Shown here piece after piece: positions 11,204-41,294 of a DNA stretch of 58,464 bases (within the stretch, counting starts at the first letter, position 1; every line of letters begins with the position of its first letter). A model generated the notes under the pieces. It had not been told where the DNA came from, did not search any database, and saw only the letters and a list, made by a program, of their open reading frames with translations. The position numbers were made by a program, and so were the translations under genes. The stretch is from an uncultured Clostridia bacterium (lineage in GTDB: Bacteria; Bacillota; Clostridia; Christensenellales; CAG-138): assembly GCA_937915455.1 (NCBI GenBank), contig CALDNN010000102.1:1-58464 (forward strand), given 5' to 3'.

Positions 11204-11208
11204 AACTT

Positions 11209-11308: not shown

Positions 11309-11384
11309 GCCTCGGTAGCTCAGTTGGTAGAGCAAGGGACTGAAAATCCCTGTGTCGGTGGTTCAAGTCCACTCTGAGGCACCA
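11309..11384 (+). tRNA. tRNA-Phe (anticodon GAA)
   Basis: GCCTCGGTAGCTCAGTTGGTAGAGCAAGGGACTGAAAATCCCT...CTGAGGCACCA. Anticodon loop is CTGAAAA. Confidence 0.9.
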
Positions 11385-11387
11385 CTT

Positions 11388-11463
11388 GCGGGAGTAGCTC
11401 ATTTGGTAGAGCGCCGCCTTGCCAAGGCGGAGGTGGCGGGTTCGAGCCCCGTCTCCCGCTCCA
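11388..11463 (+). tRNA. tRNA-Gly (anticodon GCC)
   Basis: Same 76-nt sequence as the minus-strand copy at 3515-3590. Confidence 0.92.
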
Positions 11464-11508
11464 TCGCTTACACAGAGGGTACGGCGTACCCTCGTTTCAT
11501 AAATAATC

Positions 11509-11582
11509 GGCGCCATAGCCAAGCGGTAAGGCAGAGGTCTGCAAAACCTTAATCCCCGGTTCGATTCCGGGTGGCGCCTCCA
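11509..11582 (+). tRNA. tRNA-Cys (anticodon GCA)
   Basis: GGCGCCATAGCCAAGCGGTAAGGCAGAGGTCTGCAAAACCTT...TGGCGCCTCCA. Anticodon loop is CTGCAAA. Confidence 0.88.
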
Positions 11583-25998: not shown

Positions 25999-26576
25999 TA
26001 CGTTAAAGTGATAAAGTGATATCTTGATAAAGAGCAAGGCAATGGCTGCTGTTTACGCAGATCCTCGGCGAGTGCAAGCGGCTGTTTGCTTAGCTGCCGC
26101 TTTTCATCAGATAAACAAACCAGCAGGCTCCGTAAGGGGCCTGCTTTTTGGTTCCGTATATTCTCCCAATATCAGCCGGCTTTTTCTTCGTCCAGCGGAA
26201 GGCCGCGCCCGGCCTTAGCTGGATGTGGCTTGCCATCCTGCTCAGCTTTGCCTTTTATCTGCCTGTGGTGCTCTGGTCCAATCAAAACCCCAAGGTTGGC
26301 ATGCTGATGCTGCCCAAAACCTGCGCTTACCTATGGATGCTGGCTATGTGCCTTTCCCTTTAAGCCGCCGCGCATATATAAAGGAAGAACAGGACGTATG
26401 GCTGATGGAAAAGATGGCCACTTCAACCGCGAGCTTATCCCGGAGCGCGCCACCGCCTGATCTTGGAAGGCGTTTGCCCGGCCTGCCAAGATCAAGCCGG
26501 ACAAGATCGGTGCAACAAACCATAAAAACAGCGCCGCGGCTTTGCCGTGGCACTGTTTGATTGGTAGCGGTTATGG

Positions 26577-27068
26577 CTAGAACAAAAGAAATACGTTTTG
26601 GTTGAACCAAGTATAGCCCAAATCGAGGCGGGAAAACAGGCCCAGCCTGGCCAGCAGGCCCAGCAGCAGCCACACGAGCAGCACACTGAGCAGGATGTTA
26701 AAACCGAAGAGGATCGTACCCTGTGCCCGTTTGCCTCCGCCCCGTTTTTTCGTCTCTGCGGGCGCGGCCGCAATAGCCTTGGGCGCTGCAGGTGCACCCG
26801 CGTCGCCCAAAGGACGGCCGGAGAGGTAGGCGGCGCTCTCCTCCATCACATACCCTTTGAGGAAGGGCCAGTAATCCTCCCCATCATAATCCACCACGGA
26901 AAGGGTGTCGAAGGCCTTGATAAAAACCGACTTGGTGACGGTGCGCGCGGCTTGCTCCACTTTGGTGTGGGAAAAGGCCAGGTCATAAACCCGGGCGCTG
27001 TATTCGTGGAAGAAATCGATTTTACAGCTGCCGCCTTGGCGAAATTGTTCGGCTGTATAGTGCCGCAT
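26577..27068 (-). CDS. membrane-anchored protein with sigma-70 region-2-like N-terminus
   Basis: 163 aa. FFHEYSARVYDLAFSHTKVEQAARTVTKSVFIKAF resembles sigma70_r2. A Pro/Ala-rich basic linker and one TM segment (ILFGFNILLSVLLVWLLLGLLA) follow. GGAGGTCAAG RBS. Confidence 0.6.
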   Translation of the reverse strand: MRHYTAEQFRQGGSCKIDFFHEYSARVYDLAFSHTKVEQAARTVTKSVFIKAFDTLSVVDYDGEDYWPFLKGYVMEESAAYLSGRPLGDAGAPAAPKAIAAAPAETKKRGGGKRAQGTILFGFNILLSVLLVWLLLGLLARLGLFSRLDLGYTWFNQNVFLLF

Positions 27069-27192
27069 CTTGACCTCCTGACGCCGCCCGCGTGGGTCGC
27101 CGCATTTTGTGATATTTTACCACGCCTTTCCCATATTTGTCCAATAGAGGAAAAATATACCCCGCCTGGCAATCCGTGGGCACAGAAACCCT

Positions 27193-27220
27193 TTCCAATG
27201 GGCGAAAAATAGATTATAAT
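27193..27220 (+). promoter_or_regulatory. candidate promoter TTCCAA-16-TATAAT of the polysaccharide operon
   Basis: TTCCAA at 27193-27198 and TATAAT at 27215-27220. Confidence 0.4.
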
Positions 27221-27239
27221 CAAATGAATATAAGATATC

Positions 27240-27279
27240 TTGGGGGGGTGTTTCGGCAAATGGCTTGCCCTGCCCCCAA
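27240..27279 (+). promoter_or_regulatory. G/C-clamped hairpin in the operon leader
   Basis: TTGGGGG...GGCAA-ATGGC-TTGCC...CCCCCAA: nested stems between the putative promoter and ATG 27314. Confidence 0.35.
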
Positions 27280-27313
27280 ATATACATTCATGTGAACAGG
27301 AATGGTATAATGT

Positions 27314-28621
27314 ATGCGTCAGAATGACCAGAAACCGCGCATCGCGGTCATCGGTCTTGGCTATGTGGGATTGCCGCTGGCCGTGGCCTTCGCTAAAAAG
27401 GTGGAGGTTATCGGCTACGATACCAACAAAAGAAAGCTTGACACCTACAAGCGGGGCCTCGATCCGACCGACGAGGTGGGCAATGAGGGCATAAGAAACA
27501 CCACGGTGCGCTTTACGACGGATCCGTCTGCGCTCAAGGCGGCGAATTTCCTCATCGTGGCTGTTCCCACCCCCATCTTCCAGGATAAAACGCCGGATCT
27601 TAACCCCGTGCTCAGCGCTTGCCGTACTGTTGGCCGCAACCTGACGCCGGGGGCTACGGTGGTGTTTGAGTCCACCGTCTATCCGGGCGTTACAGAGGAG
27701 CTGTGCGTGCCCGCCATCGAGGAGGAATCGGGCCTCGTCTGCGGGAAGGATTTCTTCGTGGGCTATTCGCCCGAGCGCATCAACCCGGGGGATCGGCAGC
27801 ACACCCTATCCTCGGTGGTCAAAATCGTTTCCGGTATGGATGAGGCTACCTGCGCATACATTGCCGAGGTTTACGAAATGGTGGTGCCGGCGGGCATTTA
27901 CCGCGCCAGCAGCATCATGGTGGCGGAGGCTGCCAAATTGGCGGAAAACGCCCAGCGGGATATCAACATCGCCTTTATGAACGAGCTGGCCATGGTTTTC
28001 GACAGGCTCAGGATCAGCACGCGCGATGTGCTCGAGGCCATGAATACCAAGTGGAACGCGCTGCGCTTTGAACCGGGCCTAGTGGGCGGCCATTGCATCG
28101 GTGTGGATCCTTACTATTTCGTTTACCAGGCGGAAAACCTGGGCTACCACTCCCAGATCATTCTGGCCGGGCGCAATATCAACGACGGTATGGCCCATTT
28201 CGTAGCCGATGCGGCCATCAAGATGATGGTTCTGGCCGGCAAGCGCGTGCGGGAGGCCAAGGTATATATTTTGGGCGCTGCTTTTAAAGAAAATTGCCCG
28301 GATATGCGCAATTCCAAGGTAGCGGATATCATCCGCCGCCTTAGCGAATATAATATCGCCTGCGGCCTGGTAGATCCGCTTGTCGACGCGGAAGAGGCCG
28401 AGGCCGTCTTTGGCGTTCCTCTTACCCCCCTCTCAGAGGTGCGGGAGGCGGACTGCCTGATTTTCGCCGTGGCGCACGATTGCTTCCGCGCCCTCTCCTG
28501 CGAGCAGGTCGAGGCCATGTTCGCCCCCCTCCCCGCGGGCGAAAGGGTGATTGTGGATGTGAAGAGCATGTTCGATCGGGAATGCGCCGAGCAAAAGGGA
28601 TTTCTCTACTGGGAGCTATAA
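27314..28621 (+). CDS. nucleotide-sugar 6-dehydrogenase, UDP-N-acetylhexosamine type (TviB/WbpO/WbpA-like)
   Basis: IAVIGLGYVGLPLAVAF Rossmann N-terminus and catalytic-Cys motif GGHCIGVDPYY. The latter is my recollection of the HexNAc-dehydrogenase subgroup, as opposed to the Ugd-type GGSCFPKD. Confidence 0.8.
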   Translation: MRQNDQKPRIAVIGLGYVGLPLAVAFAKKVEVIGYDTNKRKLDTYKRGLDPTDEVGNEGIRNTTVRFTTDPSALKAANFLIVAVPTPIFQDKTPDLNPVLSACRTVGRNLTPGATVVFESTVYPGVTEELCVPAIEEESGLVCGKDFFVGYSPERINPGDRQHTLSSVVKIVSGMDEATCAYIAEVYEMVVPAGIYRASSIMVAEAAKLAENAQRDINIAFMNELAMVFDRLRISTRDVLEAMNTKWNALRFEPGLVGGHCIGVDPYYFVYQAENLGYHSQIILAGRNINDGMAHFVADAAIKMMVLAGKRVREAKVYILGAAFKENCPDMRNSKVADIIRRLSEYNIACGLVDPLVDAEEAEAVFGVPLTPLSEVREADCLIFAVAHDCFRALSCEQVEAMFAPLPAGERVIVDVKSMFDRECAEQKGFLYWEL

Positions 28622-28624
28622 TAA

Positions 28625-31075
28625 TTGAGCGCTGCAAACAACAAAAGAAGGATATGGGTTCCTAAAGCGGCCAGGATCACCATCTGCCTGGGCGCGTTCA
28701 TCGCGCTCACGCTGGTGGTCTTGGTGGAACTGGGCCCGTCGATCGCGCCCCTTATGGCCGGCGCCAATATGTATGACGCCACGGCCGAGATCAAGGCGGC
28801 CCAGGCGCGCTTTGCCGCGGATGGGGCGGGTAGGGCCGAATTGGTCGGCAGCACACAATCCAAGGCGCAAAAGGTCGAGATGGCCTTCCAGGGCATGGCC
28901 CGGCCCGAAGCTATGGAAAAGATTCTTGATCTTTTACAGGAATACAAAAAAGAAGCCTCCTTTTTTGTATCCGGCATCGACGCCTCCGAGGACGAAGCCT
29001 CCATCCAGCGCGCCGTGCACGAGGGGCACACGGTGGGCAGTTATGGCCTTCGGGGCGAAAAATATATGGAGGTAAAAGACGGCACAGCCTTGGTGGATGA
29101 TTTCTGCCGGGCCAATAAAATCATCAAAGTGGTCTCCGGTAGCGCCCCCACCCGCATGATGTGCAATGCCACCCAATATACGAATACCCTGCGGCGGGCG
29201 GCCTGGGCCAGTGGCATCGAAACCATCGAGCAAACCACCCACTATGTCAGCTTCCAGAGCTTCGCCTCCTATGCGCAGGTCAAGGGCTATGTGGATCGGC
29301 TGCCCTACGCCTCCATCGTGGCCATCAAAATGGAAGGCCCGCTGGACGAGATCGAATACGAGCCCCCTGTCGAGGACGACAAGCCCGCCGTCGATATGCA
29401 GGATACCCTCGACCCGGAGGATACACCCGAGCCGGAAGAAAAGCCCGTGGATATAAGCAAGCTGGACGACGAGCAGCGGCTGCTGCTGATCGTCGAGTGG
29501 TTCCTCAAGGCGCTGGATGATACCAACTATCTCCCGGAAGCTGCGGAACTGCTTGAGGAGAACGACGGCGCGCTGGCGGAGCACATCATCGATATCCACA
29601 CCACCCGGCCTTCCTCCACCTTTACTTTTTATGACCTGGGCAATATCGAGGAACTGACCTACCTGCTCGATGTTTTAGATGAAATGGATGCCCGCGCCAC
29701 CTTCACGGTCACGATGGAAGAGGCGGGGATTTATGGCAAGCAGATCCGCGCCGTTTTGGCGCACGGGCACGATTTGGGAATCGCTCTCAAGCCGCGCAAG
29801 GAGAAGGATGTTTATGCCTACTGCACGGAGATCCTCCGTTGCCAGAAGAAGCTCAAAGAAGAATATGGATACGAGAACGCCCGCATCGTCATGCTGCCCT
29901 ATGGCCCATTGAGCGACAGCATCCGCGAGGCCATCAGCGCCGCCGGCTGCACCCTTTTGAGCCACAGCTCCTCCATTACCAAAACAAAGGATAAACTCGC
30001 CACCGATCCCGAGGCGGTATACGACTCCCTTTTCGGCGGCAAGCGCATCATTCTGCGGCGAGGGCATATCGTCTATTTCCGCATGAACTTTTACCAGAGC
30101 AGCGATACCCTCCTAGGGGATATGGTGCGCCTGATCATCACGCGCAACAGCGCCTACCCTATCGAATCGGCCAATACGATCCTGGCGGATACGGATCTGC
30201 TGTATACCTATCCCCTGCCCGCGGATTCCATCCTGCCAGGGGTGAAGGATAAGATCTACGCGGGTCAACTGAGCGGCGAGCTGATTGATACGGTGGAAAA
30301 ATATTACATCGGCTTCACCCAGGCGCGCACCGTTAAGCAGCTGCCCGGCTTCACCGCAAAAGAGGTGCGTCGCATCAACCACAAGGGCCTGATCGAAAAC
30401 GACGAGAACGCTATTTTCCTCACCATCGACGACTGGGGTTCGGACGATACCATCACCAAGCTGCTGGATGTGCTACGCAAGCATAACGTGAAGGCCACCT
30501 TCTGCGTGCGCACCAATAACATCTACGCCAACCCCAATCTACTGCGCGCCATCGCCCTGGAAGGACACGATATCGCCAGCCATACGGACTCGCACCTGGC
30601 CCTGGCCACAGAGCTGGGCAACAACCGCTTTGCCGAGCTGACGGACGAAGAGCAGCAGATGCTGCGGGCGGATCTTATCCGCTCCTACCAGGTGCTGCAA
30701 AGCGTGGTGGGTGATGTGAAGCTGGAAAACGGCAAACCCGCCCTCACCACCCTCTTCCGCCCGCCAACCCTGGCGGTGAGTAAGATGGGCATGGAGGCGG
30801 TGTTCGACTGCGGCTTCACCTATATCGTCAGCGGCGCATATACCTCCGAGGATTATATAGCCAAGAGCGCGGAAAAGCTGCTGGCGCAGATACACCACAA
30901 CATCCGCCAGAGCGGTACCGTCATCGTTATGCATATGTCCGACAACAGCCTCTATACTGCCGAGGCGCTGGATGCATTCTTAACGGCAAATGAGAGCAAG
31001 CCCGCCTCCCGGCAGTTCGTGTGCCGCAGGCTGAGCGATTATCTCGATGGCAGCTATATCAACTCGGTGCGTTGA
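28625..31075 (+). CDS. membrane-anchored protein with three NodB-homology (CE4 polysaccharide deacetylase) domains
   Basis: TTG start and an N-terminal TM segment. Domain 1 (MAFQG...GHTVGSYG) and domain 2 (TFTFYDLG...GHDLGIAL) lack catalytic residues. Domain 3 is canonical: LTIDDWG, GHDIASHTDSH, FRPP, VIVMHMSD. Confidence 0.8.
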   Translation: MSAANNKRRIWVPKAARITICLGAFIALTLVVLVELGPSIAPLMAGANMYDATAEIKAAQARFAADGAGRAELVGSTQSKAQKVEMAFQGMARPEAMEKILDLLQEYKKEASFFVSGIDASEDEASIQRAVHEGHTVGSYGLRGEKYMEVKDGTALVDDFCRANKIIKVVSGSAPTRMMCNATQYTNTLRRAAWASGIETIEQTTHYVSFQSFASYAQVKGYVDRLPYASIVAIKMEGPLDEIEYEPPVEDDKPAVDMQDTLDPEDTPEPEEKPVDISKLDDEQRLLLIVEWFLKALDDTNYLPEAAELLEENDGALAEHIIDIHTTRPSSTFTFYDLGNIEELTYLLDVLDEMDARATFTVTMEEAGIYGKQIRAVLAHGHDLGIALKPRKEKDVYAYCTEILRCQKKLKEEYGYENARIVMLPYGPLSDSIREAISAAGCTLLSHSSSITKTKDKLATDPEAVYDSLFGGKRIILRRGHIVYFRMNFYQSSDTLLGDMVRLIITRNSAYPIESANTILADTDLLYTYPLPADSILPGVKDKIYAGQLSGELIDTVEKYYIGFTQARTVKQLPGFTAKEVRRINHKGLIENDENAIFLTIDDWGSDDTITKLLDVLRKHNVKATFCVRTNNIYANPNLLRAIALEGHDIASHTDSHLALATELGNNRFAELTDEEQQMLRADLIRSYQVLQSVVGDVKLENGKPALTTLFRPPTLAVSKMGMEAVFDCGFTYIVSGAYTSEDYIAKSAEKLLAQIHHNIRQSGTVIVMHMSDNSLYTAEALDAFLTANESKPASRQFVCRRLSDYLDGSYINSVR

Positions 31076-31090
31076 GAAAGGAGGGGAGAG

Positions 31091-32983
31091 ATGGACTGGT
31101 ATAACAAGCTCGTAAACGTTTTCACAGGCAAAAGGGAGTCTGAGCCAATCGAGGATATCCTCGTCAAGCCCAAGGCGGACCGGCGCATCTTTTCCCATGT
31201 ACCCGATCCCCTGCTGCAAAGAAAAGCAGGCGACCGCCGGGGCTCCACGGGTGCGGAGGGCCAGGCGGAAGTAGACGAGCGCCAACGGGTGGCCGACGCG
31301 GGCACCCGCTTTAGCGTGGATTACCCCGTGCGCGTGCGCGTGGTGCTGCCGGGCGGCGAGAGAAGGAGCTTCACTTGCCAGAGCGTGGATGTTTCCACCA
31401 CCGGCATGTTGCTGCGCATCGAGGGGGAGGCGCACTACCAGCTTTTGCAAAAGGCGGCGAAGATCCGCCTGCGCTTTGAGGTGGCCCCCGGCTCTATGCC
31501 CGAGGGCATGGAAATGAAGGTCAACATCGCAGCCCGGGCCGCCCGCTTCCAGATCAAAGAAGACGGCGCCTGGTTCTGCGGGCTGCAATTCAACGAAACC
31601 TTGGTCCAATACGCGGGCCGCCGCAAAAACGCGAATTTGGCGCTGATATCTACGCTTTTCCTCGTTATCATGGTGTTCGTTATCATCCTCATGCGGGCGG
31701 AGAGCGTGATCTACTTCAAGTTCAACAAATTCCTCTATACCTACAGCATCATCACGGCAGCCTTCCTGCTTTCGAGGTATCTGTTCGGCTCGCTTTATCG
31801 TGCCGTACCCGTGGATATGGATTACACCCCCGGCGTGACCATCATTATCCCCTGCTTCAATGAAGAGGCCTGGATCCACCGCACCATCACCAGCTGCATC
31901 AACCAGGATTACCCGCCGGATAAGCTGGAGGTGATCGTGGTGGACGACCATTCCAATGATAATTCCGTGGAAGCGATCAAGGCTACCATCGCCAAGCTTA
32001 AATCAGAAGGCGGCCGCTTCCAGGCGGATGGTCGGCTCAGCTACATCCTGCAGGACGCCAACCGCGGCAAGCGCGAGGCCCTTTGCCAGGGTGTTCTCAA
32101 GGCTAAGCACGAGCTGGTGGTGTTTGTGGATTCGGATAGCTTCCTCGAGCCTTTCGCCATTCGCAACCTGGTGCAGCCCTTTAAAGACCCCAAGATGGGT
32201 GGCGTGGCCGGCCGCACGGACGTGGCCAATACCTATACCAACGGCCTCACCAAGATGCAGGCCGTGCGCTACTATATCGCTTTCCGCATCATGAAGGCTG
32301 CGGAAGCCTATTTCGACGCCGTCACCTGCCTTTCCGGCCCGCTTTCCTGCTATAAAAAGCAGATCGTGATAGACCATATGGACGAGTGGATCAACCAGCG
32401 CTTCATGGGCCAGAAGGCCACCTTTGGCGACGACCGCGCCATGACCAACTTCGTGCTGCGTCGCCACCGCACGGCCTACCAGGATACGGCCGTGTGCTCC
32501 ACCATCGTGCCCAACCGCTACAGTATGTTCTTAAGGCAGCAGATGCGCTGGAAGCGCTCCTGGCTGCGCGAATCCATCACCGCGGGCAAGTTTATGTGGC
32601 GCAAGGAGCCGTTTATGTCGCTGTTCTTTTACATCGGCGTGCTGGTGCCTGTGGCCGCGCCCATCGTCGTGGTTTACAACCTGCTGTATGTGCCGCTGGT
32701 CTACGGCATTGTGCCCACCACCTTCCTGCTAGGCCTGTTGACCATGGCTATGCTGATGAGCTTTGCACAGATGTTCTTTCGCAGGAGCAGCACCTGGCTC
32801 TACGGCCTTTGGTTCTGCCTCTATTACGAGGCCGTGCTGCTTTGGCAGATGCCCGTTGCGTGGGTCACCTTCTGGAAATCCACCTGGGGCACCCGCATGA
32901 CGCCGGCGGACATCCGCGAAAAGGAACGCAGGGAGGAGAGAAAACGAGCAGAGGAGGCGCATTACGGCCATGCCGCTCTATAG
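31091..32983 (+). CDS. PilZ-like domain fused to a hyaluronan-synthase/NodC-like family-2 processive glycosyltransferase
   Basis: N-terminus has the QSVDVSTTGMLL (DxSxxG) PilZ signature. Then 2 TM segments, VVDDHSNDNS, FVDSDSF, TFGDDRAMTN, QQMRWKRSWLRES (QxxRW), and C-terminal TM segments. GAAAGGAGGGGAG RBS. Confidence 0.8.
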   Translation: MDWYNKLVNVFTGKRESEPIEDILVKPKADRRIFSHVPDPLLQRKAGDRRGSTGAEGQAEVDERQRVADAGTRFSVDYPVRVRVVLPGGERRSFTCQSVDVSTTGMLLRIEGEAHYQLLQKAAKIRLRFEVAPGSMPEGMEMKVNIAARAARFQIKEDGAWFCGLQFNETLVQYAGRRKNANLALISTLFLVIMVFVIILMRAESVIYFKFNKFLYTYSIITAAFLLSRYLFGSLYRAVPVDMDYTPGVTIIIPCFNEEAWIHRTITSCINQDYPPDKLEVIVVDDHSNDNSVEAIKATIAKLKSEGGRFQADGRLSYILQDANRGKREALCQGVLKAKHELVVFVDSDSFLEPFAIRNLVQPFKDPKMGGVAGRTDVANTYTNGLTKMQAVRYYIAFRIMKAAEAYFDAVTCLSGPLSCYKKQIVIDHMDEWINQRFMGQKATFGDDRAMTNFVLRRHRTAYQDTAVCSTIVPNRYSMFLRQQMRWKRSWLRESITAGKFMWRKEPFMSLFFYIGVLVPVAAPIVVVYNLLYVPLVYGIVPTTFLLGLLTMAMLMSFAQMFFRRSSTWLYGLWFCLYYEAVLLWQMPVAWVTFWKSTWGTRMTPADIREKERREERKRAEEAHYGHAAL

Positions 32984-34826
32984 CGACACAGACTACGGCA
33001 AGTATAAGGACCGCAAAAAGGCCTTGCGCAGCGTAAACGAGGTTTTGATCCTGCTGATTTTCGTGTGCATCCTCGTGCTGGCGCTCAGCACAACGCAGCC
33101 CTACGAGCCGATCGACAGCGCCCTAATCACCGGGCAGGATAACGGCTTTGTGGCCGTATCCTATTTCGGCACCGATATCGAGGGCAGCGAAACGCTCATC
33201 AGCTCCAAAAAGCTTGGGGAACACCTCACGGCCCTGCGGGATTCCGGCTACGTCACCATCACCCAGCAGGACATTTTGGATTACTACGAACACGGCACGC
33301 CATTGCCGGAGCGGGCCCTTTTCCTGATGTTTGAGGATGGGCGACGGGATACGGCGATCTTCGCGGAAAAGATCCTCGAGCGCCTCAATCAGAAGGCCAC
33401 CGTCCTTTCCTATGCGGATAAATTTGGCAACAAGGACGACAAATTCCTCTCCCCCAAGGAGCTGTTAACGCTGCAAAAGGATTCCTACTGGGAGCTGGGT
33501 ACCAACGGCTACCGTCTTTCCTACATCAACGTGTTCGACCGCTACAATAACTATTTCGGCCAGCTCAATTCCATCGAGTTCAACCGGGTCTCCAAATACG
33601 TGGATCGCAATTATAACCACTATTTGATGGATTACATCCGCGACGAGTACGAGATCCCGCTCGAGAGCAGGCTGGAAATGGAGGCCCGCATACAAGCGGA
33701 CTATGCCCTGATGGAAGAAATTTACGAAAAAGAGCTTGGCGAGGTGCCGGCTCTCTATACCCTTATGCACTCCAACACCGGCATGTTCGCCACCAATGAA
33801 AAGGTCAGCGCGGTCAACGAAAAAGAAATCCGCGAGACCTTCCGCATGAATTTCAACCGGGAGGGCTATTGCCTCAATACGGCCGATATCTCCCAATTCG
33901 ATCTTACGCGCATGCAGCCCCAGGCCTACTGGTCCGTCAACCACCTGCTGATGCGCATCTGGGACGACACCGGCCTCGACCAGGCCTTCCAATCAGGCGA
34001 TCGCTCGATTGCCGGCCGTTGGGAAGTGTGCGAAGGCGCGGCAGAATGTACCGAGGAGCAGGTCATCCTTACCACCCTGCCCAACGCCAGAGGCCTGATG
34101 CGCCTCAATGAGAGTGAAGGGCTTTACGACCTGAACCTACAGACGCGCCTTAGGGGCAACAAACTGGGCGGCCAATCGATCTACCTAAGGGCAGATGAAT
34201 CGCTCGATTCCTACGCCGTGGTGCGCCTCGAAAACAACTCCCTCATCATCGGCGAGAAATCCGGCGGCGAGGAAACGCGCCTGCTCGAGCTGGATCTCGA
34301 TGAATTTGATGGCACCGTTTGGCAGCAAAAGGAAGAGAACCGGCTGGAATCGCAGAAAATGGCGCTGGACGCCAAGCGAACCTATGGCGATAAAACCGCG
34401 CAAAACCAGCGCATCATCCAGGCATTGGAAGAGGGCCGGGCGGGCGCTTCCTCACAGAAAGGCAACGGCGACTACGTGCCCCCGCTGGAGCTGAAAACCA
34501 GCGGCAACCGTCTCCTTTCCCTCTCCCTCCTTGGCGAGCGGCTTACCGTATACATCGATAATAAACTGGCCGCAGAGGTACAGCTTAGCGGTGCGCACAG
34601 CGGTGCGGTCTACCTGGAAGCCGTCTCCATGCTGCAAGGCGCTTACAGCCAGCGCAACCTGGCGGACGATGTGTACGACGGCGTGTTTGAAGGGCTGGTC
34701 ATCTACCATGGCGAGGGGCGGAGCGACGCCCTGTACGATACACGGCCCACGGGCTTTCGGGCTTTTGGCGCTCAGGCCGGCAAGGCTTGGGACGGGCTCG
34801 TGAAATGGTTTATGGAAACGATCTAG
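32970..34826 (+). CDS. membrane-anchored protein with degenerate deacetylase-like N-domain and beta-rich C-domain
   Basis: TM segment VLILLIFVCILVLAL. ALFLMFEDGRRDT resembles the TFDDG motif of PgaB/IcaB-type CE4 domains, but no HxxxH follows. GAGGAGG RBS; 14-nt overlap with the synthase gene. Confidence 0.6.
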   Translation: MPLYSDTDYGKYKDRKKALRSVNEVLILLIFVCILVLALSTTQPYEPIDSALITGQDNGFVAVSYFGTDIEGSETLISSKKLGEHLTALRDSGYVTITQQDILDYYEHGTPLPERALFLMFEDGRRDTAIFAEKILERLNQKATVLSYADKFGNKDDKFLSPKELLTLQKDSYWELGTNGYRLSYINVFDRYNNYFGQLNSIEFNRVSKYVDRNYNHYLMDYIRDEYEIPLESRLEMEARIQADYALMEEIYEKELGEVPALYTLMHSNTGMFATNEKVSAVNEKEIRETFRMNFNREGYCLNTADISQFDLTRMQPQAYWSVNHLLMRIWDDTGLDQAFQSGDRSIAGRWEVCEGAAECTEEQVILTTLPNARGLMRLNESEGLYDLNLQTRLRGNKLGGQSIYLRADESLDSYAVVRLENNSLIIGEKSGGEETRLLELDLDEFDGTVWQQKEENRLESQKMALDAKRTYGDKTAQNQRIIQALEEGRAGASSQKGNGDYVPPLELKTSGNRLLSLSLLGERLTVYIDNKLAAEVQLSGAHSGAVYLEAVSMLQGAYSQRNLADDVYDGVFEGLVIYHGEGRSDALYDTRPTGFRAFGAQAGKAWDGLVKWFMETI

Positions 34827-34843
34827 AAAGGGACTCCCACCTT

Positions 34844-35998
34844 ATGTGCAAAACCAGATGGGCGGCCGCCCTCCTTTTGGTGGCGCTGATCGCCACCCTG
34901 TTTATAGCCTGCGCCCAACAGGCGCTTTTGCCCGTTTCTTCAGGGGCCATGCCCGGTGCGGAAACGATGGAAACGCCAGAAACGGAGGTACCCGGTACGG
35001 AGGTACCCGGTACGGAGGCGCCGGAATCTACCGCCTCCCCCGCTTTGCCGCAGGAGCAAGCGGAGGCCGCACGTCACCTTTCCGCTTGGGCTGTATATTG
35101 GGATACGGATAACGTGATCGCCGAGCTGGAAGCATTGGGCGCAGAGGAGCAGCTGGAGGCGCTCTGCTATTTCGAGGCCTTTTTCAACAGCCGGGGCGGC
35201 CTCGTGCTACCCGAGGCGATTCCCGCCCTGTATAAGGCCGTGCAAGCGCGTTTTTCGGCTGCGAAGTGGACGAGCTACCTCACCTTTGTTAATGACCTGC
35301 GGGATGACACGGGGCAATTCTCCCTCAAGGATACGGATCTGCTCTGGGCGCTGTTGGGCACGGACGAGGCCCTGTATAGCCATGTGGAAAGCGTGATCGC
35401 GCTGGCCAAGGCCCAGGGTTTTGACGGCGTCGAGATCGATTACGAATCTATCCGCGAAGATTTAGACCTTTGGGAGCGCTTCTTCACCTTTTGCAGCGCG
35501 CTCTATACGCGCACCCAGCAAGAGGGCCTAGCCCTGCGCGTGCTGGTCGAGCCCAACACCCCCTTCGAAAGCCTGACATTCCCCCCCGGGCCCACCTATG
35601 TAATGATGTGTTATAACCTATACGGCGGCCACAGCGGCCCCGGCCCCAAGGCGGATGCGGCCTTCATCCAAAAGCTCATGGCCCAAATGGCGGCGCTGCC
35701 TGGCCGCAAGGATTTCGCTATCGCCACCGGCGGCTACGACTGGTGCAATGACGAGGCTAAGCAGCTCACGGAGGAGGCGGCCGCGGAGCTGGCCGCCAAG
35801 CACCGGGCCGCCGCTAAGCGCGATGCTGCCAGCCGCGCCCTCTCCTTCCTCTATAAAGATGATGAGGGGCGCAGACACGAGGTATGGTATGCGGACCGGG
35901 AAACGCTGGATTATTGGGCGTCCATCATCCGCCAGGACAGCGGCAACACGGGCATCTCCATCTGGCGGCTGGGCGGCAACCTTAATGCCGTGCAATAA
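34844..35998 (+). CDS. GH18-like (chitinase-fold) lipoprotein
   Basis: Lipobox LFIAC, then a Glu/Thr/Pro linker. FDGVEIDYE matches the GH18 DGxDxDxE catalytic strand with the first Asp replaced by Glu. Start set at ATG 34844. Confidence 0.7.
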   Translation: MCKTRWAAALLLVALIATLFIACAQQALLPVSSGAMPGAETMETPETEVPGTEVPGTEAPESTASPALPQEQAEAARHLSAWAVYWDTDNVIAELEALGAEEQLEALCYFEAFFNSRGGLVLPEAIPALYKAVQARFSAAKWTSYLTFVNDLRDDTGQFSLKDTDLLWALLGTDEALYSHVESVIALAKAQGFDGVEIDYESIREDLDLWERFFTFCSALYTRTQQEGLALRVLVEPNTPFESLTFPPGPTYVMMCYNLYGGHSGPGPKADAAFIQKLMAQMAALPGRKDFAIATGGYDWCNDEAKQLTEEAAAELAAKHRAAAKRDAASRALSFLYKDDEGRRHEVWYADRETLDYWASIIRQDSGNTGISIWRLGGNLNAVQ

Positions 35999-36022
35999 AG
36001 CCACAGAACCGGGAGATAGGAT

Positions 36023-36391
36023 ATGAAATATAAAATATTAGGCTGGGCTAAGGATATTGCCTTGTTGGAGAGCACCGAGCCGCTGATCGCGGATGCGCAA
36101 TCCGCCCTCGACCTCATCATGAGTATGCAGTATGAAACGGGCTGCCGTAAGCTCATCCTGCACAAAAGCCGCTTTGCACCGGACTTTTTTATTTTGCGCA
36201 CGGGGCTGGCAGGCGAGGTTTTGCAAAAGTTCATCAACTACCATGTAAAAGTGGCCATTGTGGGCGACTATTCCCAATATACCAGCAAGTCCCTGCGGGC
36301 TTTCATCTACGAGAGCAACCGGGGGAACGATATCTATTTTCTCTCCAGCGTTGAAGAAGCGGTGGAGAAATTCGATCATCCGCCCCGCTGA
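36023..36391 (+). CDS. DUF4180 domain protein
   Basis: 122 aa. FFILRTGLAGEVLQKFINYHVKVAIVGDYSQYTSKSLRAFIYESNRGNDIYF matches my recollection of DUF4180. Confidence 0.7.
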   Translation: MKYKILGWAKDIALLESTEPLIADAQSALDLIMSMQYETGCRKLILHKSRFAPDFFILRTGLAGEVLQKFINYHVKVAIVGDYSQYTSKSLRAFIYESNRGNDIYFLSSVEEAVEKFDHPPR

Positions 36392-36491
36392 CATAGCTCG
36401 GACGAATTCCGCAAAAGCCGGCATTTTCCTTCATTTTCCATCATTGGCGTAGTATAATGTGGTAAATCGACCTTCGGGAGGGCAAGCCTCG

Positions 36492-37958
36492 ATGAGCAGA
36501 ACCTTTTCGGGCAAGAGCATAGCAACAGCCCTCGGCGCGCTGCTATTGATTAGCGCCTGCGCGCCGCAGCAGGCGGGACCGGCCGCGCTGGATCCAAGCG
36601 CGCCTGTTTCCATAGAGATATGGCATTATTACAACGGCCCGCAAAAGCTGGCCTTTGACGAGTTGGTGACCCGCTTCAACGAAACGGTGGGCCAGGAGCA
36701 GGGCATCGTGGTGGAGGCCTTTGGTCAGGGCAATGTGAACGAGCTTTTCCAAAATATACACGACGCGGTGGATAACAAAGTGGGCGCAAGCGAGGTGCCC
36801 GCCGTTTTCGCCGCCTATACCGATACCGTATACGACCTCGACCAGCGTAATATGGTGGCCGCCTTCGATAGCTACTTTACCAAAGAAGAGCTCTCCGAAT
36901 ATGTGGACGCCTACATTACCGAAGGCCGCTTCGACGATGCGGGCAGCCTGAAAATCATCCCCACGGCCAAGGCCACCGAGATTTTGATGGTCAACAAAAC
37001 CGATTGGGATCGCTTTGCCGTGGAAACCGGCGCACAGATTGCCTTGCTCAATACGATCGAGGGTCTAGTGGAGGCCTCCAAGGCCTACTACCTTTGGACG
37101 GATGCGCAAACGCCTCATGTGTTGGACGACGGCAAGGCCATGTTTGGCCGGGACGCCATAGCCAACTATATCATCTTGGGCTATCATCAGCTCACAGGCG
37201 GCTCCCTCTTCGACCGGCAGAATGGTAAAGTGACTTTCGAGCCGGATGAGGCGGCCTTCCGCAAGCTTTGGGATAACTACTATATCCCCTATATCAACGG
37301 CTGGTTCGGCGCTTACGGCCGCTTCCGCTCGGACGATGCCAAGACCGGCGATATCATCGCCCTGGTCGGCTCCACCTCGGGCGCTTATTATTTCCCCGAT
37401 AAGGTTACCCTGGCGGATGACACCACCTACCCCATCGAAGCGGTCGTCTTCCCCGCTCCCTGCTTTGCGGGCTGCACGCCAAGCGCCATCCAGCAGGGCG
37501 CAGGCATGGCCCTCATCGCTTCCGACCCCCGAACCGAGCTGGCCGCGGCCACCTTCCTCAAATGGTTTACCGACGTGGATAGAGCTATCGACTTCACCAT
37601 CTCCTCTGCCTACCTGCCGGTAAAGAAAACGGCCAACGATATGGGCCGTATCGGAGTGGACGAGGGTTATCAGGCCCTGCCGTCGACCGTGCAGGAGGCT
37701 ATCGCTGTATCCGTGTATGTGATGAACACCTACGAACTATATTTCGAGCAGGCCTTCTGCGGCTTCTCCGATGCCCGCGAGGTGATCGAGAGCTCCCTAG
37801 CAGCGCGCGCGGAGGCGGATCGCGAGCAGGTCCTCACGCTGGCGGAGGACGGCATGCCCCTTTCCGAGGCAGTGGCGAAATTTGCCACAGATGAAAGTTT
37901 CCAAAGCTGGTATCAGGCGTTTGTGGATGAAATTCGCGCAAAGATCGGCGAGAATTAA
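36492..37958 (+). CDS. orphan extracellular solute-binding lipoprotein (ABC SBP family 1 fold)
   Basis: Lipobox LISAC after GGGAGGGC RBS and ATG 36492. About 490 aa SBP-like protein with no adjacent permease or ATPase genes. Confidence 0.75.
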   Translation: MSRTFSGKSIATALGALLLISACAPQQAGPAALDPSAPVSIEIWHYYNGPQKLAFDELVTRFNETVGQEQGIVVEAFGQGNVNELFQNIHDAVDNKVGASEVPAVFAAYTDTVYDLDQRNMVAAFDSYFTKEELSEYVDAYITEGRFDDAGSLKIIPTAKATEILMVNKTDWDRFAVETGAQIALLNTIEGLVEASKAYYLWTDAQTPHVLDDGKAMFGRDAIANYIILGYHQLTGGSLFDRQNGKVTFEPDEAAFRKLWDNYYIPYINGWFGAYGRFRSDDAKTGDIIALVGSTSGAYYFPDKVTLADDTTYPIEAVVFPAPCFAGCTPSAIQQGAGMALIASDPRTELAAATFLKWFTDVDRAIDFTISSAYLPVKKTANDMGRIGVDEGYQALPSTVQEAIAVSVYVMNTYELYFEQAFCGFSDAREVIESSLAARAEADREQVLTLAEDGMPLSEAVAKFATDESFQSWYQAFVDEIRAKIGEN

Positions 37959-37974: not shown

Positions 37975-40900
37975 ATGGAACAACAGCCATCAACTAAAAA
38001 TACAAAAAAAGCAAAAAAGGGCCGCAGATCCCATTCAATTATGAGTCGCATCCTGCATCCGGTGGTCATCGCCCTGTTGGTCCAGGCGGGGCTTTTTTCC
38101 GCCAACATCATTTGGGGGGGCACGCTGGAGAAGCTGAACCACAACGCCTTCGACATCCTCAACGGGCAAGTGGTCAACCGTCGGGATTATCTGGAGAACG
38201 AGATGCTTCAGCGTTGGTCGAACCTGAATCCGGCTGCGCACAATATCCGCCTTTTGTTTGATCGGCAGGCGGAGCAGGGCGCGGCAAGCGGGAACGCCCG
38301 CCGCAATGAGCTGCTGTTGCAAAGTGCGCCGGATCTGCTTGCTTTGCTGCGCCGCAATTCCGTTACGGGCGTTTTCCTCATCCTCACGGAGGGGGAGCCC
38401 CACGACGAAGCGGCGCGGATGCAAAAGCATGCCCTCTACATCCGCGATATGGATCCGACCACCAGCTCGGCGGATAATTCCGACCTGCTGCTTTTGCACG
38501 CGCCTACCCTGATTTCCAAGCAGCTGGATATTTCGTTGGATTCCCGCTGGCAATCCTACATCAGCTTTTCGCAGGACGAACCGGATAACTGGCTTTATTA
38601 CAGCAAGCCCTACGCAGCCGCCTTGGGCCACCCCGAGATCGGCGAGGAAGACCTCGGCTATTGGAGCCCCGCCTTCCGCGCCGAGGGGGATAGTTTAGAT
38701 GCCATCACCTACTCCATGCCGCTTCGGGATGCGGCGGGCACGGTGCGGGCGGTGCTGGGCGTGGAGATATCCACCGATTACCTGCGCAAGCAGATGCCCT
38801 ATCAGGAGCTCAACAGCGAAAAGCAGGGTATGTACCTGCTGGGCCTGGCCCGGAAGGATGAGCCGGCCTTTGAAGCGCAGCTGGCCACGGGGCCTGTCTA
38901 CCGCTATTTTTTCGGCGAGCCGAACGAGATGCGCTTCCTCCAATGGGAAGAATATACCAACGCCTATCAGGTGGCCGGCGATACCGCCCACCGAGACGGT
39001 GTGGTTTACGGCTGCATCCAATACCTCGATTTATATAATACCAACACCCCCTTTGAAAACGAGCGTTGGGCGCTGATCGGCATGTTGGAGCAGGAGCAGC
39101 TGCTGGGCTTCTCCAGCGGGATGATGTGGTCGTTCCTGCTGATCCTAGGGGTTTCCGTTCTGCTGGGCCTGGGCGTGGCCTGGGTGGCCAGCATATGGCT
39201 CACGCACCCCATCACGCGGCTGCTGCGCCAGCTGCGCGGAAACGAACCCCGTAGCCCCCTGGAGCTGGACAAGCTGATGATTTCCGAGATCGACGAGCTT
39301 TCCAGGGCCATTGAGGGCCTGAGCGCGCGCGTGGCCCTGGAGGCCAGCCGCCTCTCCCAGATCATCAATATATCCGGCGTGGAAATCGGCGCTTTCGAGG
39401 CCCTGCCGCGGGAGGGCCGGGTATTCTGCACGGCTCGCTTTTTCGAAATGCTGGGCATTGAAAAAGAGCTGGCAGAGGATGGCACCATCGACAGCCGCAC
39501 GTTTGACGCGCTGCTCGCCCCATTGCTGGCGCAGGCCGAGGAGGAAACGGAAGGCCGCGACACCAAGATTTTGCGCATCGCCCGCGAGCAGGAGGAAACG
39601 CGTTGGCTGCGGCTAAACATCGCCCGTGTGGATGGCCGCGTTACGGGCGTGATCAGCGATATCACGGAGGAGATCCTCAAACGCCGCCAGCTCGAGCGGG
39701 AACGGGATTACGACCCGCTCACGGACCTGCCCAACCGGCGCGCTTTCAGCGCGGCGCTGGCTAAGCTCTTTCAAGATCCGGATTCATTGGGCGTGGCGGC
39801 GCTGGTAATGCTGGATCTCGATAACCTCAAATTCATTAATGACTCTCACGGCCACGATTGCGGCGACGCCTACATCCGCAGCACAGCGGACGCGCTGCGC
39901 AAGTATGCACCGGCGCACGCGCTAATTGCCCGCATGTCCGGTGATGAGTTTTATGTGTTCTTTTTCGGCTATGCTTCCCGCGAGGCGGCCCAAGCGGATA
40001 TCTGCAGGCTCAAAGAGGGTTTAAGGCAATCGACCTTCCCCCTGCCGGATGAGACTCGCCTCAACATCCGCGCCTCCGCGGGCGTGGCCTGGTACCCGGA
40101 ACATTCGACTTCCTATGAAAAGCTGCTCAAATATGCCGATTTTGCCATGTACCAGGTCAAGAACACCACCAAGGGCGAGTTCGGTGAGTTCGATCTGGAG
40201 CGCTACAGCCAAGATTCCTTCCTGCTGCAAAACCAGGAGGAGATCAACCGCCTCATCGAGCAGGAATTGCTGACCTACCACTTCCAGCCCATCGTGGATG
40301 CGAAGCAGGGCACGGTATTCGGCTACGAGGCTCTGATGCGGCCGCTGCTCGAGAGCATCAAATCCCCTTCCAAGTTGTTGATGCTGGCCAAATCCCAATC
40401 CAAACTCTACAGCATCGAGCGGCTCACTTGGCGGCGCAGCCTGGCGCAGTTCGAAGCGCTACAAAATGTCGACCCCGAGGCCCGCCTGTTCGTGAATTCC
40501 ATCGCCAACCAACTATTGGCCGAAAGGGATTGCCAATACCTGAAGGAGCGCTTTGCGCATATGCTGCCGCGGGTGGTTATGGAGATCACGGAAGCGGAAC
40601 ACTCTACCGAAAGTGAAACCCGCATCAAGCTGGAGCGGGCTGCGGACTGGGGCTGCCGCATCGCCCTTGACGATTTCGGCACGGGCTATAATTCCGACGC
40701 GGCCCTACTCTCCATCAACCCCGATTTCGTCAAGCTGGATGTTTCCTTTGTGCGCAACATCGATACGGACGCCAACCGCCGCAAGCTCCTGCAAAACCTG
40801 CGCTCCTATGCGGATACCCGGGGCATCTACGTGATCGCGGAAGGCGTGGAGACGGCAGACGAGCTACATACCCTCATTGAGCTGGGAGTCGATTATGTGC

Positions 40901-41100
40901 AGGGCTACTACATCGCCAGGCCCAAGCCACACATCGAGCCCCTGCCCGCAGAGATCGTGCGGGAGATCCGCGAAACCTACGCCGCCATCCCGCCCTATGT
41001 GCCCAATGAAGGCTGCGCGCCCGCCCCGGCAACGCGCGCGGAAAATGCCAGGAACCAGCGCCATCAACAGCCGCCTTTCGGTGGCCCCGGGCAGCTTTAA
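37975..41100 (+). CDS. membrane sensor with large extracytoplasmic domain, PAS-like region, GGDEF (SGDEF) and EAL domains
   Basis: 1041 aa with two TM segments flanking about 330 aa. DPLTDLPNRRAF...ARMSGDEFYVFF (GGDEF domain). EAL domain has YEALMRP, FVNS, EITE, DDFGTGYNS, KLDVSF, EGVET and QGYYIARP. Confidence 0.9.
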   Translation: MEQQPSTKNTKKAKKGRRSHSIMSRILHPVVIALLVQAGLFSANIIWGGTLEKLNHNAFDILNGQVVNRRDYLENEMLQRWSNLNPAAHNIRLLFDRQAEQGAASGNARRNELLLQSAPDLLALLRRNSVTGVFLILTEGEPHDEAARMQKHALYIRDMDPTTSSADNSDLLLLHAPTLISKQLDISLDSRWQSYISFSQDEPDNWLYYSKPYAAALGHPEIGEEDLGYWSPAFRAEGDSLDAITYSMPLRDAAGTVRAVLGVEISTDYLRKQMPYQELNSEKQGMYLLGLARKDEPAFEAQLATGPVYRYFFGEPNEMRFLQWEEYTNAYQVAGDTAHRDGVVYGCIQYLDLYNTNTPFENERWALIGMLEQEQLLGFSSGMMWSFLLILGVSVLLGLGVAWVASIWLTHPITRLLRQLRGNEPRSPLELDKLMISEIDELSRAIEGLSARVALEASRLSQIINISGVEIGAFEALPREGRVFCTARFFEMLGIEKELAEDGTIDSRTFDALLAPLLAQAEEETEGRDTKILRIAREQEETRWLRLNIARVDGRVTGVISDITEEILKRRQLERERDYDPLTDLPNRRAFSAALAKLFQDPDSLGVAALVMLDLDNLKFINDSHGHDCGDAYIRSTADALRKYAPAHALIARMSGDEFYVFFFGYASREAAQADICRLKEGLRQSTFPLPDETRLNIRASAGVAWYPEHSTSYEKLLKYADFAMYQVKNTTKGEFGEFDLERYSQDSFLLQNQEEINRLIEQELLTYHFQPIVDAKQGTVFGYEALMRPLLESIKSPSKLLMLAKSQSKLYSIERLTWRRSLAQFEALQNVDPEARLFVNSIANQLLAERDCQYLKERFAHMLPRVVMEITEAEHSTESETRIKLERAADWGCRIALDDFGTGYNSDAALLSINPDFVKLDVSFVRNIDTDANRRKLLQNLRSYADTRGIYVIAEGVETADELHTLIELGVDYVQGYYIARPKPHIEPLPAEIVREIRETYAAIPPYVPNEGCAPAPATRAENARNQRHQQPPFGGPGQL

Positions 41101-41115: not shown

Positions 41116-41143
41116 AAAAAAGTGGCCTCCACGGCCACTTTTG
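41116..41143 (+). terminator. rho-independent terminator after the GGDEF-EAL gene
   Basis: AAAAA-AGTGGCC-TCCAC-GGCCACT-TTTG. Confidence 0.65.
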
Positions 41144-41294
41144 TATTATCCCTTATTTTCATATAAAAATTTTTACACCTTGGCCTGAACCCCCACGTCG
41201 ATGCGTTATATGATTTTGCGCTTCGTGCGTTTTCGCGCTTTTCCGCCATTGACTTTTTTCGGGCTGCTGTGATATAATTCATTTTGCCGGGACT

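Follow-up and report, generated by a model that had tools for sequence, protein, structure and literature searches.

A probable uncharacterised, c-di-GMP-linked exopolysaccharide secretion cassette built around a PilZ-bearing GT2 synthase in an uncultured Clostridia bacterium

The window analyzed here comprises positions 1 to 58,464 of contig CALDNN010000102.1 (assembly GCA_937915455.1) of an uncultured Clostridia bacterium (Christensenellales, CAG-138). According to its list of open reading frames (ORFs), positions 27314-36391 hold a block of six ORFs, all on the + strand, which probably encodes an uncharacterised type of synthase-dependent exopolysaccharide (EPS) secretion system linked to cyclic di-GMP (c-di-GMP). 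The original prediction had described the block as a candidate c-di-GMP-gated EPS operon outside the known synthase gene sets. The intergenic distances that it gave (3 nt, 15 nt, a 14-nt overlap, 17 nt and 24 nt) are correct, a Shine-Dalgarno-like sequence precedes the start of each ORF, and profile hidden Markov model annotation with Pfam and NCBIfam, the first check that it had proposed, upheld the domain types of all six proteins. The six genes are the following (aa, amino acids; HexNAc, N-acetylhexosamine; AF2, AlphaFold2).

27314..28621, + strand: gene A, TviB/WbpA-type nucleotide-HexNAc 6-dehydrogenase, 435 aa (Pfam, NCBIfam)
28625..31075, + strand: gene B, membrane-anchored triple CE4 (NodB-type) protein, 816 aa, TTG start (Pfam)
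31091..32983, + strand: gene C, synthase with an N-terminal PilZ domain and a GT2 domain, 630 aa (Pfam, NCBIfam, solved-structure matches)
32970..34826, + strand: gene D, bitopic partner with a pseudo-deacetylase and a lectin-type domain, 618 aa (AF2, Foldseek)
34844..35998, + strand: gene E, GH18-fold lipoprotein (Pfam, solved-structure matches, motif)
36023..36391, + strand: gene F, DUF4180 protein, 122 aa (Pfam, 5e-41)

The start of gene E is ambiguous, given that the longest ORF begins at TTG 34787; the alternative ATG 34844 was favoured because the protein read from it starts with a signal peptide and lipobox, and because there is then no long overlap with gene D.

The synthase gene C lies at the centre of the block, and its GT2 domain was delimited by Pfam.

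31829..32557, + strand: GT2 domain of gene C (aa 247-489)

The motifs DSD (347-349), GDDR (446-449), QQMRW (483-487) and the gating motif WGTR (599-602) were invariant in 42 homologues. Transmembrane helices begin at about residue 183 and recur further toward the C-terminus, so that hydrophobic helices stand on both sides of the GT domain; the catalytic motifs and the flanking helices that mark processive membrane GT2 enzymes were therefore both found. The nearest solved relatives were the hyaluronan synthases (HAS) of a Chlorella virus (1.5e-34) and of Xenopus, in agreement with Foldseek. Besides GT2, Pfam reported Chitin_synth_2 (88.9 bits), and among the NCBIfam models NodC scored best (182.5 bits, cut-off 550), followed by PgaC_IcaA (112 bits, cut-off 422; 2.8e-32) and CelA TIGR03030 (54 bits, cut-off 699). 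When representatives of 50%-identity clusters were searched, 610 clusters were recovered at E<=1e-30, of which only the closest dozen or so aligned from the N-terminus; most of the others were 400-560 aa long and aligned from about residue 185 on, and thus lack the PilZ module. By its motifs and matches, gene C is classified as a membrane-embedded processive GT2 of the hyaluronan-synthase/chitin-synthase/NodC clade.

Relatives of the locus were sought in one genome per species, and the best 79 species-level loci were compared (L-numbers below are locus labels). The synthase has relatives in at least 533 species, and thousands of close homologues (62-85% identical) are annotated merely as "glycosyltransferase" or "hyaluronan synthase". 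The 79 loci include Candidatus Pelethousia (93% identical), Clostridium sensu stricto, Lachnospiraceae, Oscillospiraceae, Christensenellales, Anaerocolumna and Vallitalea, as well as diderm Negativicutes (Sporomusa, Pelosinus, Propionispora). Gene content was determined by tblastn of all window proteins against the 79 loci, and gene calls on independent contigs agreed with it. The order and strand of B-C-D-E were kept in about 60-75 of the 79 loci, which is nearly all of those with enough flank. At the junction of C and D the two genes overlapped in 38 of 60 loci, and overlapped or lay within 40 nt of each other in 56 of 60, a tightness that suggests that C and D are coupled in translation and form a stoichiometric pair. 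A homologue of gene A adjoined the cassette in 30 of the 79 loci, its presence tracking the synthase clades, and the DUF4180 gene F was limited, together with a binding-protein gene (G) downstream of it, to L001 and L002, the two closest relatives; gene F has no solved relative, and its linkage to the cassette is not conserved. What is conserved as a functional unit is therefore the set of four genes B-E, of which the six-gene block is the version of a single lineage. Of the six-gene cassette originally proposed for phylogenetic profiling, B-E recur as a set, and neither the dehydrogenase nor the DUF4180 gene is universal.

Gene D matched no Pfam family, and only weak NCBIfam matches to the N-terminal part of PgaB were obtained (31-33 bits against cut-offs of 322-923). 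Its AF2 model, with a predicted local distance difference test (pLDDT) score of 84.5, ends in a C-terminal helix and contains the following parts.

aa 21-39 of gene D, + strand: transmembrane helix (AF2)
33138..33974, + strand: PgaB/IcaB-like (beta/alpha)-barrel without the metal-binding His (aa ~57-335; Foldseek)
34002..34739, + strand: CBM66/concanavalin-like beta-sandwich (aa ~345-590; Foldseek)

In Foldseek comparisons the barrel resembled PgaB, PplD and IcaB (TMt 0.72-0.78) and the sandwich resembled CBM66 (0.77). As shown by a phmmer alignment to PgaB, the CE4 metal ligands have been lost, FEDG replacing FDDG and the HxxxH-type His motif being absent; the degenerate deacetylase-like domain that had been predicted for gene D is thus a PgaB-like barrel whose metal ligands are gone, and yet few residues of the entire cassette are conserved as strongly as those of its pocket. 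A distant branch of metagenomic loci with about 40% identity (L084:2016-9823 and L085:202-3789) carries synthases with a canonical, contiguous RRxxxR PilZ domain. Directly after its synthase, L084 encodes a D-like protein with FDDG still in place and a Polysacc_deac_1 match, and a 1031-aa fusion of tetratricopeptide repeats (TPR) with CE4 and a GH18 protein lie nearby. Given that this D equivalent keeps the ligand motif and the Pfam deacetylase match, gene D would descend from a synthase-coupled deacetylase and, in Bacillota, may have become a non-catalytic chain-handling subunit or an enzyme of altered catalysis.

Two further extracytoplasmic proteins, B and E, carry one candidate catalytic site each.

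30398..30994, + strand: catalytic CE4 domain 3 of gene B (aa ~592-790), motifs TIDDWG, HTDSH, FRPP and VMHM
35420..35446, + strand: catalytic motif FDGVEIDYE of gene E (aa 193-201; sequence)

The triple-NodB membrane protein of the original prediction was recognized in gene B as three Polysacc_deac_1 stretches (Pfam) behind an N-terminal transmembrane helix at 18-36. The CE4 motifs were found in domain 3 only, where they are at least 90% conserved across 75 homologues; domains 1 and 2 are degenerate. With NCBIfam, NodB reached 104.8 bits (cut-off 240), and the best model, sporulation PdaB, also fell below its cut-off. Gene E scored 27.3 bits with the Pfam GH18 model, under the cut-off of 29.6, and matched the solved structures of YdhD (2e-12) and YaaH (3e-11). 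Compared with DxxDxDxE, its motif reads D194-G-V-E197-I-D199-Y-E201, in which the final D-x-E is kept and the middle Asp is Glu, and it is conserved in 65 homologues. The lipobox FIAC places the lipid anchor at Cys23, and this Cys is conserved as well. GH18 enzymes use the N-acetyl group of the substrate and act on beta-1,4 HexNAc linkages, and CE4 enzymes remove N-acetyl groups.

In Negativicutes the cassette opens with an extra gene, located directly after a riboswitch that is described below (L066:2566-5898, L074:4264-5850 and L048:4372-5862). The conserved C-terminal part of about 300 aa, 56% identical between genera, matches no Pfam family and ends in ...THYF, and the Sporomusa malonica version adds about 600 aa of N-terminal TPR repeats. 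An end of the ...THYF type is a classic outer-membrane beta-barrel terminus. By analogy, the extra gene probably encodes a porin of the PgaA/BcsC type through which the EPS would cross the outer membrane, a solution for polymer export that PelB exemplifies as well. The restriction of this gene to diderm hosts speaks for polymer secretion by the cassette.

The nature of the polymer was approached through gene A and the pairing of B with E. All three UDPG_MGDP_dh domains are present in gene A (Pfam). Among the NCBIfam models TviB scored best (431 bits, cut-off 592), at about twice the score of WecC, the UDP-ManNAc dehydrogenase model (210), and more than three times that of any UDP-glucose dehydrogenase model (Ugd, at most 126), in line with the earlier HexNAc-type call; the cut-off of the NDP-sugar dehydrogenase subfamily was passed (376 against 190). 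Gene A is accordingly predicted from these scores to convert UDP-N-acetylglucosamine (UDP-GlcNAc) to its uronate, UDP-GlcNAcA. Given the substrate needs of GH18 and CE4 enzymes and a synthase clade that makes beta-1,4 GlcNAc linkages, the product is most likely a chitin-like poly-GlcNAc that is partly deacetylated, hence chitosan-like, and trimmed by E. The presence of gene A suggests GlcNAc-uronate in the polymer of the window lineage, with an uncertain contribution, since most cassettes lack the dehydrogenase and since no column of the synthase alignment separated the loci with and without it at an 85%/85% threshold. That null result weighs against a firm role for gene A in the model, and linkage and sugar identity are read only from family resemblance and the GH18/CE4 pairing.

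The product of the window genome might instead be a hyaluronan-like heteropolymer in which GlcNAc and GlcNAc-uronate alternate, and the synthase would then be bifunctional. Bifunctional hyaluronan synthases are indeed its closest solved relatives, the 6-dehydrogenase stands first in the operon as hasB stands with hasA, and it is kept in several clades, including all Negativicutes loci. However, in 49 of the 79 loci no dehydrogenase lies within 10 kb, although their synthases are 62-68% identical and show no discriminating column; moreover, neither GH18 nor CE4 enzymes work without N-acetylated residues, and both suit chitin-type substrates, and the dehydrogenase is TviB-like (HexNAc-specific) rather than Ugd-like. 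An alternating product is therefore regarded as unlikely, with a chance that is nevertheless appreciable, and the chitin/chitosan-like product is preferred.

The N-terminus of the synthase was analyzed for a c-di-GMP receptor, and two features were delimited.

31178..31243, + strand: Arg-rich N-terminal arm of gene C, with DRR 30-32, R44 and DRRG 48-51 (sequence)
31307..31597, + strand: PilZ beta-barrel of gene C (aa 73-169), with D100-x-S102-x-x-G105 (Pfam, AF2)

In the full-length protein PilZ (PF07238) scored 21.4 bits, just under the gathering score of 22.5. When the isolated N-terminus (188 aa) was used, the score rose to 24.3 bits, above the gathering score, and all 16 homologue N-termini examined matched PF07238 (best 1e-6), which sustains the PilZ-like call made on the synthase. 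The [D/N]hSxxG motif was found as D100-V-S102-T-T-G105, invariant in 42 sequences, and DRR 30-32, R44, R49 and R50 (of DRRG) and R73 were likewise invariant in these 42 synthases, whose overall identity is about 62%. In the AF2 model, residues 1-75 are disordered, a confident beta-barrel spans 78-170 (pLDDT 75-88), and a helix then leads into the first transmembrane segment. The RRxxxR motif is divided in this subfamily: DRRG (48-51) and xxR73(F/Y) are separated by an insertion of 20-26 residues. In relatives of about 40% identity (520-580 aa), (D/E)RRxxxR(F/Y) is contiguous, and the subfamily insertion aligns exactly there. Because both halves of the signature are retained, though split, the PilZ domain of gene C likely binds c-di-GMP, as judged from its sequence.

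Links to c-di-GMP were also found outside the synthase. Relatives were scanned with Rfam at gathering thresholds. In Clostridium carboxidivorans P7, a c-di-GMP-II riboswitch (75.4 bits) with a terminator-like element lies about 60 nt before the first cassette gene, and in S. malonica a c-di-GMP-I riboswitch (63.8 bits) stands at the head of the operon. The c-di-GMP-I element occupies the same position in five further Negativicutes loci, six in total, with compensatory changes in the first hairpin. That two riboswitch classes were independently recruited to it is strong evidence that the cassette belongs to a c-di-GMP regulon. In the window, two same-strand genes outside the originally predicted six directly follow the cassette.

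36492..37958, + strand: gene G, SBP_bac_8 lipoprotein, lipobox ISAC, no ABC permease adjoining (Pfam)
37975..41100, + strand: gene H, GGDEF-EAL sensor with two transmembrane helices, 1041 aa (Pfam EAL 8e-52, GGDEF 4e-33)

For gene G, ATG 36492 with a GGGAGGG ribosome-binding site was preferred over GTG 36459, and G and H are separated by a 17-nt gap. Gene H has an extracytoplasmic domain (weak dCache match), SGDEF in its GGDEF domain, and the EAL, DDFGTG and EGVE motifs all intact in its EAL domain, from which it is predicted to be a c-di-GMP turnover enzyme adjoining the cassette. It was found at the cassette only in the closest relative, L002; the L001 contig ends before the sensor gene. The two genes look like a binding-protein-dependent c-di-GMP sensor pair, and, more speculatively, the pair might sense oligosaccharides freed by the GH18 enzyme. 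The adjacency was taken as a local clue, and wider neighbourhood counts were not used as support. Together, the invariant PilZ motifs, the riboswitches of classes I and II in two lineages and the neighbouring GGDEF-EAL gene strengthen the c-di-GMP link that had been predicted.

Several results weigh against this link and have to be set beside it. The contiguous RRxxxR motif is missing from the subfamily of gene C. A profile of the N-terminal 188 aa matched no solved structure even at E<=10, those of PilZ domains included, and hhalign paired the N-terminus only weakly (E 0.06) with a canonical PilZ domain from L082. For the full-length synthase, AF2 gave a model with a mean pLDDT of 58, so that only the PilZ barrel was usable and no gating geometry could be derived. 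No riboswitch was found in the 28 other loci scanned with Rfam, and none of the c-di-GMP classes was found in the window, either over its whole length at gathering scores or at E<=1 in positions 26000-27400. GGDEF/EAL genes occurred within 10 kb of the cassette in 7 of the 79 loci, which is about chance given the density of such genes in Clostridia. Our own c-di-GMP-I covariance model, run on 81 sources, recovered only the six Negativicutes copies from which it was built. Given the negative result in the 28 other loci, the riboswitch layer of control is lineage-specific.

Part of this evidence would fit a PilZ-like domain that has lost c-di-GMP binding and serves as a structural or protein-interaction module, the cassette being regulated otherwise in the window organism: the RxxxR is not contiguous, the full-length Pfam score is just below gathering, solved PilZ structures are not matched, and the window is without a riboswitch. 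Against such a loss, the split RR...R and DxSxxG residues are invariant in 42 sequences, which is hard to explain without a ligand; the sister branch has the contiguous motif, orthologous operons stand under c-di-GMP riboswitches, and a GGDEF-EAL gene lies next door. Loss of binding is thus considered unlikely, and c-di-GMP control of the cassette remains the preferred reading.

A further question is where the polymer is deployed. A spore- or envelope-associated glycan, such as a chitosan-like spore or cell-wall layer, could be made in place of a biofilm matrix, given that E has its nearest solved relatives in the spore enzymes YdhD and YaaH/SleL, that the best NCBIfam model for B (below its cut-off) is sporulation PdaB, that all host lineages are endospore-forming Bacillota, and that fungal spore walls share the logic of chitin synthase plus deacetylase. 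The PilZ domain, the c-di-GMP riboswitches and the outer-membrane porin of diderms point instead to secretion of a matrix polymer; in addition, one Lachnospiraceae cassette abuts a cellulose EPS locus, and the distant branch with the TPR protein is probably not from spore formers. A spore or envelope role is accordingly judged improbable, and matrix secretion is favoured.

The cassette was then compared with known systems. The literature examined in full text, which covered a survey of synthase-dependent operons, clostridial cellulose, two PilZ surveys and a Lactobacillus c-di-GMP paper, does not describe it; subscription-only literature lay outside the search, and a prior description there is possible. 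Among the eight proteins A-H, Pfam and NCBIfam detected no BcsB, PgaD/IcaD, PelD/F/G, PssE/YdaK-type, GH8 or GH153 component. The cut-offs for PgaC/IcaA, NodC, CelA, NodB and PgaB were not reached, in keeping with the earlier statement that the block does not fit the known gene sets.

A functional parallel is offered by BcsA-BcsB and the clostridial CcsA-CcsB-CcsZ, in which a processive GT2 (D, D, D, QxxRW) also forms the export channel, PilZ is fused to the synthase, a single-pass partner bears extracytoplasmic carbohydrate-binding domains, a dedicated hydrolase is present, and diderms add a TPR/beta-barrel outer-membrane component. In BcsA, however, PilZ is C-terminal, whereas in the cassette it is N-terminal, before the first transmembrane helix, with RRxxxR split. 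The GT core falls in the HAS/chitin-synthase/NodC clade and reaches only 54 bits with the CelA model, the partner is a pseudo-CE4 plus lectin protein rather than BcsB, the hydrolase is GH18 rather than GH8/GH5, and a deacetylase is present. Identity with BcsA-BcsB was rejected on the TIGR03030 score (54 against 699), the N-terminal PilZ and the PgaB-like and CBM66-like folds of D.

Class I HAS (Chlorella-virus, vertebrate and streptococcal HasA) share the GT and transmembrane core, GDDR, QxxRW and WGTR, and as in hasAB a nucleotide-sugar 6-dehydrogenase is co-encoded in the window genome. By contrast, HAS has no PilZ, deacetylase, GH18 or partner subunit, and, unlike hasB, gene A is TviB-like (UDP-HexNAc) rather than a UDP-glucose dehydrogenase and is missing from most cassettes. 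NodC, the top curated model for the synthase, and the NodB-type CE4 domains recall chitooligosaccharide synthesis, but NodC makes short oligomers and has neither PilZ nor partner; identity with NodC/NodB was rejected (182.5 against 550; 104.8 against 240). A chitin-synthase-like GT2 with CE4 and GH18 is also the classic chitin-to-chitosan triad of the eukaryotic toolkit, and a bacterial processive chitin/chitosan EPS system of such composition was not found described.

The pgaABCD/icaADBC systems for poly-N-acetylglucosamine (PNAG) likewise combine a GlcNAc-polymer synthase with a CE4 deacetylase; PgaCD is also activated by c-di-GMP, the barrel of D resembles the deacetylase domains of PgaB/IcaB, and the diderm cassettes have a PgaA-like outer-membrane TPR porin. 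The cassette differs in having no PgaD/IcaD, in a fused PilZ through which c-di-GMP would act, in a D protein without metal ligands, and in GH18 in place of GH153. That it might be a divergent PNAG system (beta-1,6-GlcNAc) of the ica/pga type was considered, since PgaB and IcaB are structurally nearest to the first domain of D, the synthase matches the PgaC_IcaA model at 2.8e-32, and the polymer would be GlcNAc-based and deacetylated. Yet the PgaC_IcaA score (112 against 422) lies below the NodC and HAS matches, PgaD/IcaD, GH153 and dispersin-type GH20 are absent, the hydrolase is a GH18, a family of beta-1,4 HexNAc linkages, and WGTR and other HAS/chitin-synthase motifs are present. A divergent PNAG locus is thus very improbable; identity with the PNAG system as known was rejected on the synthase score (TIGR03937, 112 against 422), the PgaB models (31-33 bits), the lack of a small two-helix subunit and the loss of the His ligands in D.

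Escherichia coli NfrB, Listeria Pss and Bacillus YdaJKLMN resemble the cassette in being c-di-GMP-activated GT2 synthases for HexNAc-containing polymers with a dedicated receptor module. Their receptors, however, are a C-terminal MshEN domain (NfrB) and the degenerate GGDEF proteins PssE and YdaK, CE4, GH18 and a pseudo-deacetylase partner are all missing from them, and their GT2 is of another subfamily. Gram-positive Pel (PelDEA_DAFG) and Pss/YdaJKLMN were rejected because no component of either was detected among the eight proteins (Pfam, NCBIfam). What had been proposed as an EPS operon combines a processive GT2, extracytoplasmic CE4 and GH18 proteins, a coupled partner D and, in diderms, an outer-membrane gene.

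A working model can be drawn from these parts. From UDP-HexNAc, most likely UDP-GlcNAc, C would build a chitin-like beta-1,4 chain, for whose export it would itself provide the channel. The cytoplasmic N-terminal PilZ domain would most likely gate the catalytic site in response to c-di-GMP, with a function like that in BcsA and the opposite domain order. D, anchored by one helix, would probably act much as BcsB does, as a co-subunit that takes up the chain on its emergence and guides it. Domain 3 of B would partially de-N-acetylate the polymer, and E would trim or release it. UDP-GlcNAcA would probably come from A, and uronic acids may therefore be present among the residues; G and H would probably set the local c-di-GMP level.

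The flanking DNA of the block contains two candidate signals.

27192..27220, + strand: sigma-70-like promoter candidate TTTCCA-17-TATAAT, 10/12 consensus matches, a frequency equal to the chance rate for the region
about 41116..41146, + strand: intrinsic-terminator-like hairpin GTGGCC-TCCAC-GGCCAC followed by TTTTGT, found by inspection of the sequence and missed by the consensus scan

The leader before gene A is 93 nt long, gave no Rfam match of any kind at E<=1, and folds no better than shuffled sequences (z-score -0.1). A weak promoter-like TTCATT-17-TATAAT lies at 36430-36458, 5' of gene G. The hairpin at about 41116-41146 ends the gene block A-H; downstream of it, a strong promoter-like site and a LacI/sugar-ABC locus follow. 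Upstream of the block, an amino-acid ABC transporter is encoded on the opposite strand. Between the transporter and the operon, a 163-aa ORF (26577-27068, - strand) is divergent from the operon; it matches no Pfam family, has a Pro/Ala-rich linker and a C-terminal transmembrane helix, is kept at the same position in L001-L003 (81% and 55% identity), and may be a regulator or anti-sigma-like protein. A stretch of about 600 nt (26000-26560) between the transporter and this ORF, with terminator-like hairpins at 26078-26155 and a short hydrophobic ORF at 26225-26560, may be a gene remnant. Elsewhere in the window, tRNA genes form clusters at 3435-3590 (- strand, two genes) and 11128-11579 (+ strand, five genes).

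Some neighbours of related cassettes were recorded as well. In the Lachnospiraceae locus L082 (1038-7211), the cassette lies immediately 3' of a clostridial cellulose-type locus (MBOAT, AlgX, BcsA-like GT2, GH5); the BcsA-like GT2 bears a C-terminal canonical PilZ, so that two PilZ-bearing synthase systems adjoin. L014 and L045 (Clostridium) share a leader of about 170 nt, located about 350 nt upstream of the first cassette gene and without an Rfam match, which could be an unrecognised regulatory RNA; both carry a GGDEF-EAL gene immediately 3' of the GH18 gene. Among several Clostridium genomes, a conserved neighbour immediately 3' of the cassette is a thiamine pyrophosphate riboswitch that precedes thiW/thiM-type genes (L071:15249-15356, L029:15260-15367 and L024:15202-15312); it is probably unrelated to the cassette.

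Matrix polysaccharides made by synthase-dependent systems have a central place in biofilm biology, and few such systems are known: cellulose, PNAG, alginate, Pel and some others. To our knowledge, very few have been worked out in anaerobic Gram-positive bacteria. The hosts of the cassette include abundant gut families (Lachnospiraceae, Oscillospiraceae) and the gas-fermenting acetogens C. carboxidivorans, C. drakei and Sporomusa. Tentatively, and with somewhat more doubt than belief, the locus is put forward as the founding example of a phylum-wide chitin/chitosan-type EPS secretion system, extending to some diderms, that pairs a split-motif PilZ-gated synthase with a PgaB-derived pseudo-deacetylase-lectin co-subunit. 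If this is true, a fifth or sixth system would join cellulose, PNAG, alginate and Pel among the major matrix systems that depend on a synthase. Should the cassette make a GlcNAc-uronate or a chitin/chitosan-like polymer, with c-di-GMP in control of it, both the matrix polymer and the receptor arrangement, the N-terminal split-motif PilZ, would be new. Such a system would further explain orphan targets of c-di-GMP riboswitches and would offer a bacterial route to chitosan-type materials.

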